A stretch of DNA of 64,000 nt from Gekko japonicus. Lineage: Eukaryota. The stretch's first letter is position 1. Every line of letters begins with the position of its first letter. The notes beneath the pieces were generated by a model. That model was given only the letters and a program-made list of their open reading frames with translations. It was not told where the DNA came from and made no database searches. Positions 30,631 to 32,934 of the stretch are shown one piece after another. A program made the translations under genes and the position numbers. The stretch spans positions 626,595 to 690,594 of the forward strand of contig NW_015161965.1 in NCBI RefSeq assembly GCF_001447785.1. Direction: 5' to 3'.

Positions 30631-31951
30631 GGAGAGAGCTAGGATGGAGATGGAAAGAGAAAGGCAGAAAGAGGAGACTGCAGCTAGGATGGAATTAGAA
30701 TGAGAGAAAATAAGGCTGGTGCATGAGCTTGAGATCGCTAAGCTAGAAAGGGGCCAACCTCCTCCAGATGCGACAGTGAGAGAAGATCGTCGGATGTACC
30801 CCTGGCTCAGGGAAAGGGAGGACATTGAGGCCTTCCTGCAGAATTGTGAACAAGTCTGTATTGGCTACAAGGTCCCCTCAGAGTTGTACATGGAAAAGCT
30901 GAGACTGCAGTTGAGTGGTGTCCTAGCTTCAGTGTCTGGGCAGATGGAAGGTAAAGAGAGAACAGACTACAAGCTGTTCAAGCAGAGAGTGTGAGAAAGA
31001 GTGGGGTTCACCAAGGAAGGGGCCTGGAAGTGCTTCAGAGAGATCAGGCTTGAAGGGAACGAGTCCTCACAGTTAATACATACTGGGAAAAGCCTATGAC
31101 TTGTGGGTGGAAGTCGCCGATGCCAAGACCCTGGCTGATGTCAAGGCCCTGATGTGCATTGACTGGTTCCTGACTCTTCTTCCTGAGTACATTAGGTGCC
31201 CCCTGGTGGACAAGAGCCCTTCTACCCTTCAAGAAGCAGGACAGTGGGCGGAGCGACTGGCTGAAGCCTATGGAGGGCAGAGGTACCTCACAAATTGGGA
31301 CTGGCATCAGAGGGAGTTTCCTAAGTCCCCACCCCAGCCCAGAAAGCAGCCAAAAGTAAAAGGACAGCCATCCCAGGAACAGCATCCTAATTCGCCAAGT
31401 GCTGGTATGCAGTTGCCAACGGGAGATTGGAAGGCACCCTGATGCTATGCCTGCAATGAGTTGGGACACATTGAAAGGCAGTGCCCTAAGGCAACTACCA
31501 GCTCATACCATATGATTCCAGTGCCCCCCCCACTCCTCCTGAGTTCAACTCAGCATGTATTCCTTGGCGCCACCATAAGGAAGTCACTGTGGACAGGCGT
31601 GGTGTTGCAGCCTGGTGAGACACCAGCTCCCTGTTGACCACCGTCCACTGATCTCTTGTGAATCCTAAGTATCTCATCCCAGGTGAAGAAAGACGAGTGC
31701 GGCGCCTGCAAGATACCAAAAAGATTGCCCTTTTAATGGCCAGGATACCTATTCAATATGAGCAGTGGAGCGGACAGTGGAAGGTTGCTGTATATGAATA
31801 CACCCCTGTGGCTATGTTTGTAGGGGAAGATCTGGCAGAACATGTACTTCAATGGCAGGAAGGTCAAAATAGAGGTAATGGTCAGCACTGCCCAGAAGGA
31901 GAGGCAGGCAGGCTGTTAAAAGGAGCAACTGAGTCAGAACACTTCCCCAAA

Positions 31952-32239
31952 ATGGCATGTGAAGACAAAAAGAGAAGATCTTCCCAGGGCCAGAATCCTA
32001 AGGGACCAGAACAGTTGAGGAAGCTGTTTGTTGGTGGCCTAAGCTCTGAAACTACCAATGCTAGTTTAAGGGAACACTTTGAAACATGGGGCACACTCAC
32101 TGACTGTGTGGTAATGAGGAACCCACACACAAAATGTTCCCATGGGTTTGGCTTTGTAACCTATTCTTATGTGGAGGAGGCAGATGCTGCCATGGTGGCT
32201 TGACCACGTAAGGTGGATGGACATAACTGTGCAGTGGAA
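31952..32239 (+). pseudogene. HNRNPA3: Processed (intronless) hnRNP A3 5' fragment, N-terminus plus most of RRM1, inside the LTR element
   Basis: [83 protein letters not shown] compared with remembered hnRNP A3 [79 protein letters not shown] and YS.VEE favour A3 over A1/A2B1. Confidence 0.88.
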
Positions 32240-32934
32240 AAACTAGGGACTGTGAGTGAACTAGGGACTATGAGTCTAGTTGCGTTAGGGCATTTGGTTT
32301 CTTTTCCCTTCACCCACTTATCGTTATTGTTCTTGCACCTGGTTTGTTTCCCATATTGGGCTGACCTCTTGTAAAAATAAACCTTTTATTTGTTGTTTAC
32401 TCTGCCTGGTCCTCACGCCTATTATTTGGCAAAATAAAGGAGGTCTGAAGGTCTGGGCCTTCTCAAGGGATCCTAAAACCAGAGTGGTGGCAGTGTCAGG
32501 TGACACCCCACCTGAGTCGTGACAAGGTCCATCAACTGGTACTAGCTGTGGTGCTAAAAGGAACCTCGATGCCAGTGCTAGGAGGCAATAGCAGGGGGAA
32601 CGTCTTGGCATCTACGCCCTTTTTGTTGGCCCTCCAGTGTGAAACAGGATGCTGGATTAGATGGACTACTGCTCTGATCCAGCAGGGCTCCTTTTATGTT
32701 CTTCTGATCTGTACTTGTAGTGGTATCTGTACAGGAAGCGGTATCACATGTGAACCCACACATATGTGAACCCACATAATCCTACCCTACATGTGCATGG
32801 ACTGCACCCAGTTGACTCTGTTCACACATGCTTGGGAGGAGAGCCATTGCTCCAGGGTGTGGTTACTGTGGGATGTGTGTGTACTAGAAGCAAATAAGTA
32901 GAAGTGATTGTGTGGTCTTTCCCACCCCATTGTG

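Follow-up and report, generated by a model that had tools for sequence, protein, structure and literature searches.

Acutely transforming retroviruses are helper-dependent genomes in which host coding sequence is fused in frame to gag (gag-onc). Capture of host mRNA by LTR retrotransposons has been described as LTR-mediated retroposition by Tan et al. 2016 (PMC5131818): part of a spliced mRNA replaces the internal ORFs of the element, no poly(A) is left behind, and the chimera can move again non-autonomously. In zebrafish, three of the retrocopies listed in Table S8 of that paper have Gypsy sequence on their flanks. According to PMC5131818, maize Bs1 is a non-autonomous LTR element carrying spliced gene fragments, with switch points common among copies and a copy number of 1-5. 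Among crocodilian endogenous retroviruses (PMC4299795), CrocERV29 (9 copies) carries KIT-ligand and CrocERV31 (6 copies) carries nectin3, and purifying selection on the cargo is reported. Gmr1-like elements (bioRxiv 10.1101/2025.03.03.638093) have a SCAN-type gag and the domain order PR-IN-RT-RH (protease, integrase, reverse transcriptase, RNase H), and are depleted in reptile genomes as judged by domain association. All statements on these three sources, here and below, refer to the portions of their text that we consulted.

The window (the whole stretch analysed, 64,000 nucleotides of Gekko japonicus DNA) contains what we read, with a probability of roughly 0.7, as a decayed member of a non-autonomous Gmr1-like family with many copies, in which IN-RT-RH was replaced by spliced hnRNPA3 mRNA through template switching, which was amplified by a helper and whose cargo was a translated passenger. 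Capture and amplification as the outcome are close to certain. The mechanism is already known; what is new here is the number of copies, the fusion to the protease, the fact that one lineage made two captures, and the collapse of the RRMs in register. The element resembles the retrocopies of Tan et al. 2016 (PMC5131818) in having an intron-less partial mRNA between LTRs, with the same junctions at several sites. In the consulted text, each vertebrate case is listed at a single locus (human FAM8A1 at two) and the fly cases at a few sites, whereas here there are at least 22 and at least 67 loci for the two cargos, with subfamilies; the in-frame protease fusion, the selection on Gag-PR and the presence of two cargos in one lineage are further differences. 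Bs1 is a plant element with several genes per element, and the consulted part of PMC5131818 describes no protease-fused single domain for it. CrocERV29 and CrocERV31 (PMC4299795) are similar in that a reptilian LTR element amplifies host mRNA, the copies share indels that keep the frame, and more than one species carries them; they are, however, retroviruses with an added ORF or a replaced env, whereas our element is of Gypsy type, has lost pol, is fused at the protease and shows no detected constraint on its cargo. Unlike the Gmr1-like elements of bioRxiv 10.1101/2025.03.03.638093, the cargo families are without IN-RT-RH, while their relative L128 has a SCAN-type gag with PR-IN-RT-RH; pol-less families would probably escape the domain-association screen of that preprint. 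The element would resemble gag-onc retroviruses in its in-frame host fusion and, if it indeed used a helper, in its dependence on one; unlike in those viruses, we see no env, sign of infection, oncogene or cargo selection. A search of the openly accessible literature turned up no report of these families, nor of such copy numbers, of in-frame fusions of this kind or of a double capture.

The window element is bounded by a full-length LTR on its 5' side and, on its 3' side, by an LTR remnant that ends at 32524, and all its features lie on the forward (+) strand. The complete 5' LTR (26587..27139) has TG...CA ends and follows the target-site duplication (TSD) AGGCC (26582..26586), of which the 3' copy is AGGTC (32525..32529). 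An LTR-bounded unit with a 5-bp TSD had been proposed in the initial annotation; the LTRs are as described, but the TSD agrees in only 4/5 positions. Directly after the 5' LTR comes a primer-binding site (27140..27160), which we take to be tRNA-Leu-like and which is conserved in both cargo families, and then the leader and the 5' end of gag (27161..27560). Gag is interrupted by a later LINE-type insertion of about 3 kb that is private to this copy (27561..30630) and carries a reverse transcriptase fragment (28655-29476; RVT_1, E=4e-27) and a nested repeat. This high-copy repeat of about 750 bp (27635-28382; 2564 first-look candidates) has sharp bounds and is probably a solo LTR. The remainder of gag (30631..31500) encodes a SCAN-like capsid domain (E=0.0017, below the cut-off) and a CCHC zinc knuckle (zf-CCHC, E=9e-6); in another copy, L031, Pfam finds SCAN at E=8e-7 together with zf-CCHC. 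The window copy is dead: its gag is split by the LINE-type insert and carries stops and frameshifts.

The aspartic-protease region (31555..31846) contains two stops and has no Pfam protease match, but can be aligned to the protease of L128. It leads into the captured sequence, and the stop-to-stop frame of 183 aa at 31652-32203 continues from the protease-like part into an RRM (Pfam RRM_1, E=2e-14; closest PDB matches, hnRNP A1/A2B1), as first noticed. Integrase, RNase H and reverse transcriptase of LTR-element type are indeed missing from the window, as is poly(A); the one reverse transcriptase present belongs to the LINE-type insert. At its 3' end the window copy has lost the tail, the polypurine tract and the first ~275 nt of the 3' LTR, leaving a remnant (32241..32524) with a short tandem duplication at the deletion junction. 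Because the tract is needed for copying, this loss most likely postdates insertion; it is private to the window copy, whereas the tail, the polypurine tract and a complete 3' LTR are still present in other copies, in line with the post-integration deletion proposed earlier. The LTR pair of the window copy differs by 6.7%, within a range of 2.5-9.4% across 11 copies.

L128 (contig C8942:2747500-2757400) was found by searching with the RNase H remnant that two younger hnRNPA3 copies retain. It is a broken element with both LTR ends, a 5-bp TSD and the Gmr1 order PR-IN-RT-RH. Its LTR, leader and gag are common to L128 and the younger hnRNPA3 copies (77-96% identity), whereas the proteases are only about 70% identical, which makes L128 a relative rather than a proven helper. 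Two further loci, L125 and L127, retain 3' fragments of such elements. The SCAN-type capsid and CCHC knuckle in gag, the TG...CA LTRs, the primer-binding site, the polypurine tract (in other copies) and the short TSD are those of Gmr1-like elements, and on sequence grounds the window element, with no IN, RT or RH, is classed as a non-autonomous derivative of this Ty3/Gypsy lineage.

The cargo stems from a host gene on contig C13448, to which it is 82-92% identical per exon, as opposed to 66-79% for two paralogues. We take this gene to be hnRNPA3, since its exon layout and short first-exon form fit. When the element is aligned to the host gene, every intron crossed by the cargo is absent, in agreement with the proposed mRNA source. 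The mRNA piece starts in exon 1 (31865..31912, 78% identical to C13448 exon 1) and extends beyond the main exon-1 donor, so that the element carries a longer exon-1 form than that favoured by host RNA reads. We also observed an extra exon 2 with its own ATG in the host gene (C13448:447500-448300, minus strand), which most RNA reads join to the short exon-1 donor. The exon-2-derived segment (31915..31987) shows a family-level in-frame loss, 27 nt in the window copy and 24 nt in some others. Exons 3 and 4 (31988..32222) are joined without an intron and encode RRM1 up to its last strand, with a premature stop at 32201-32203; a 4-nt microhomology then joins them to an exon-6-derived segment (32219..32243) that supplies the last strand of RRM2. 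Several details of the first description change accordingly: the supposed linker is made of host mRNA, with exon 1 starting at ~31865 and exon 2 at 31915, host sequence begins ~87 nt upstream of the Met at 31952 taken as the cargo start, and the PRKVDG-HNC end is RRM1 plus the last strand of RRM2 rather than plain RRM1.

Comparison of 21 mapped copies shows how the cargo was remodelled. Both RRMs are kept in three, which represent the older form, while the other 18 share an in-frame deletion of 273 nt, by which RRM1 continues directly into the last strand of RRM2 at the 4-nt microhomology. The resulting hybrid RRM is complete as one domain (Pfam RRM_1, E=6e-11); the 24-27 nt loss in exon 2 is a further in-frame event of the younger copies. 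Protease end and RRM are in the same frame in 12/19 copies, and the frame is maintained across the collapse in 14/17. Shortly after RRM2 the host sequence ends; there the frame departs from that of the host in all subfamilies, and a stop follows ~30 codons on. About 18 nt at the 5' junction are attributed to neither the element nor the host parent, and later internal switches show microhomology. No match to the ~250-nt tail was seen in the host gene within 20 kb or in any of the pol-bearing elements found. In two younger copies the final RNase H codons persist as a C-terminal remnant, joined at a short microhomology, which suggests that the 3' end was exchanged with pol-bearing RNA.

A search of the same genome with 31760-32240 as query (37 candidates scored) gave 39 matches, at least 22 of which span the protease-hnRNPA3 junction; this count is a lower bound. 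Twenty fetched copies have a common layout of LTR, primer-binding site, leader, gag, protease, cargo, tail, polypurine tract and LTR, with copy-specific truncations. Ten copies were examined for TSDs, four of them without a 5' end. The six with both outer ends all have different flanks, three with perfect 5-bp TSDs, two with 4/5 matches and one ambiguous. The multi-copy Gag-PR-hnRNPA3 family that the initial annotation predicted is thus real, with one common junction at independently targeted loci. In the cargo tree, an older group of four copies stands apart from 17 younger ones, 12 of which form a supported clade, and the older copies also differ from the younger in LTR and 3' end; in the protease tree, all 22 proteases of the family lie on one side of a branch with 100/99 support. 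These results refute an origin of the copies from one locus by segmental or assembly duplication, for which we found no support and to which we give almost no credence: flanks and TSDs differ, the copies are 78-92% identical to the window copy and form subfamilies, and contigs under a second species label span the same junction. Protein-database searches with the junction and protease regions gave no match, which is weak evidence. Rearranged copies of the family, with internal segments inverted, lie at L088/L229 (C10649) and L090 (C12850).

The common junction also bears on how the family was founded. The initial annotation had considered an L1-made retrocopy at this single locus that was later truncated; this fails, as the junction is common to at least 22 loci and the truncated 3' end is private. 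A related scenario places the event in the founder: a LINE-made hnRNPA3 retrocopy would have landed in an integrated element, later deletions would have removed pol and the 3' end of the retrocopy, and the chimera would then have been amplified. LINEs are abundant here, the mRNA piece starts near the 5' end of the transcript, and the 3' tail has no parent that we could find, all as such an origin might leave them. On the other hand, poly(A), the hnRNPA3 stop codon and 3' UTR, a second TSD and pol on both sides of the cargo are absent from the copies examined, and the second cargo, described below, starts and ends inside coding sequence, as Tan et al. report for LTR template switches in the consulted text. 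We consider a LINE-made founder very unlikely and favour template switching by reverse transcriptase.

This second cargo defines a sister family with the same LTR type, which came to light in the search that yielded L128 and in which the protease is followed by the native PR-IN linker and then, in frame, by spliced exons of PCM1 (PCM1_C, E=2e-50; example copy L134, contig C7868:236679-237999). Seven host exons are joined, from a host gene at C4963:815000-834750 (minus strand), and the cargo begins and ends within coding sequence. From 148 PCM1_C candidates, 70 matches were scored and 68 of these are borne by elements, at no fewer than 67 loci; six of eight copies examined have both ends, with distinct TSDs. 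Older copies keep the seven host exons, and most copies share an in-frame internal deletion. Across successive anchors the frame agrees in 20/35, 29/39, 27/37 and 33/38 copies. The junctions of the hnRNPA3 and PCM1 captures differ, and PCM1 is a second, independent capture in the lineage. An apparent shared stop in PCM1 was rejected as an artefact of two changes in one codon (stop in 0/27 matched copies). In a sample of 30 of the 49 protease-end matches we found hnRNPA3 cargo, PCM1 cargo or linker, one pol-bearing copy and three with only a pol-type linker, and no third cargo.

One PCM1 subfamily (L146, L147, L152 and 11 more; 14 of the 26 copies with both anchors) lacks SCAN, the knuckle and most of the protease, yet has been amplified. 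The breakpoint is common to 13 of the 14, and the loss is one event at a codon-aligned microhomology; the frame is kept in 10/14. A further observation concerns L153/L221 (C533) and L095 (C4020), where the protease of one PCM1 copy groups with a divergent element (100/100), which suggests that PCM1 cargo has moved between Gag-PR lineages.

We propose the following course of events for the captures. A Gmr1-like particle would have packaged hnRNPA3 mRNA along with its own RNA, and reverse transcriptase would have switched onto the hnRNPA3 mRNA and back, replacing IN-RT-RH. The product would retain all cis signals and Gag-PR, and could be copied by the enzymes of pol-bearing relatives. Further switches may then have remodelled it, turning two RRMs into one hybrid, trimming exon 2 and exchanging the 3' end and LTR, and PCM1 would have been acquired by a separate capture of this type. 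During its active period the family presumably had a translated Gag-PR-cargo polyprotein, its cargo amino acids drifting even as the frame stayed open. An open cargo frame would be kept because it avoids an early stop and a long 3' UTR, and homology-guided switches tend to be in register.

As a test of selection, we compared nonsynonymous and synonymous changes (N:S) shared by subfamilies with those private to single copies, leaving out CpG sites. In the knuckle and protease, N:S is 8:15 on branches inside the hnRNPA3 family and 110:38 for private changes (p=4e-4); in gag it is 7:7 for shared and 149:50 for private changes (p=0.059). The purifying selection on knuckle and protease indicates that, with the cargo attached, Gag-PR was likely translated and of use in cis. 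No constraint was detected on the hnRNPA3 cargo (14:8 versus 123:46, p=0.45), although power is low with 22 shared changes; nor was any detected on the PCM1 cargo (32:4 versus 257:83, p=0.095), where the direction is opposite to purifying. We discarded an N:S of 6:15 for changes common to all hnRNPA3 copies as a sign of cargo selection, as it includes synonymous changes of the host gene. A single-sequence AlphaFold model was likewise set aside (pLDDT 31).

In the protease-cargo frame, 8/9 binned events among the shared indels are triplets, compared with 37/125 private indels and 2/35 shared non-coding ones; the binned events double-count, and after merging the figure is 5-6 of 6-7 (p=0.005-0.013). 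The gag control for this test failed, with triplets in 2/8 shared indels, all in one homopolymer-rich stretch. Several of the in-frame events can be explained by homology alone, the in-register collapse being expected from the homology of RRM1 and RRM2. The stops had initially been put down to decay. For the terminal stop of the window copy this stands, as the codon is open in 16/20 copies; the stop immediately upstream of the protease motif, by contrast, occurs in 9/18 copies, more than simple private decay would require. It may reflect recurrent CpG decay or be partly inherited, and if inherited, some sublineages translated neither protease nor cargo.

A rival reading keeps this origin but gives the captured domains a use as accessory parts of the polyprotein, with the RRM helping to bind or package element RNA and the PCM1 piece helping to localise particles. 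Two independent captures at the same polyprotein end are both in frame, the hnRNPA3 frame is exact through the RRM and lost right after it, the collapse yields one complete hybrid RRM, and the cargos survived replacement of LTR and 3' end; PCM1 in addition shows a non-significant excess of amino-acid changes, and its subfamily without SCAN, knuckle and protease keeps the frame in 10/14 copies. Against this stand the lack of purifying selection on either cargo, the fact that RRM1/RRM2 homology alone accounts for an in-register collapse, the origin of the gag-protease deletion in a single event at a codon-aligned microhomology, and the absence of protein evidence together with the low RNA depth on gag and protease (0-5). 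We regard useful cargo as unlikely. The suggestion that the protease released a useful RRM is not supported: element sequence stops at the protease C-terminus, the native PR-IN linker is gone, and the RRM amino acids show no purifying selection. In its boldest form, the idea would be that the lineage repeatedly swapped pol for host domains serving the parasite, a hybrid RRM and a centriolar-satellite PCM1 module acting as C-terminal parts of Gag-PR through helper and LTR turnovers. This, too, we hold to be doubtful; if true, it would give gag-onc transducing viruses a counterpart among retrotransposons, with non-autonomous elements competing for helper enzymes by means of stolen host domains.

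The families show that LTR-mediated mRNA capture can yield successful, long-lived vertebrate families and not only one-off retrocopies. They are a rare stepwise record of RRM collapse in register, exon trimming and LTR exchange with pol-bearing relatives, and since one lineage made two independent captures, it becomes possible to test whether a cargo frame serves RNA stability or protein function. Moreover, dozens of intron-less 'hnRNPA3-like' and 'PCM1-like' loci in this genome are transposon cargo that could be misannotated as gene expansions.

Expression was assessed in RNA runs sampled at only 3-12% of each. Depth on gag and protease was ~0-5 per strand in two of three runs and essentially zero in the third, and reads at least 99% alike to the window numbered only 2, 0 and 4, so that transcription of the window copy is unsupported. 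The high depth on the RRM comes from the host gene. For the PCM1 family, element-specific parts have low depth in both RNA runs, and both second-species runs contain the family.

Finally, the element seems to have inserted into the 3' end of a repeat (26560-26586 and 32525-32545) that we presume to be CR1-like, although the flanking repeats have no Pfam match; a second such fragment follows at 32888-33560. Upstream, at 25696-25985 of the window, a unit of ~143 nt is tandemly duplicated with 96% identity.
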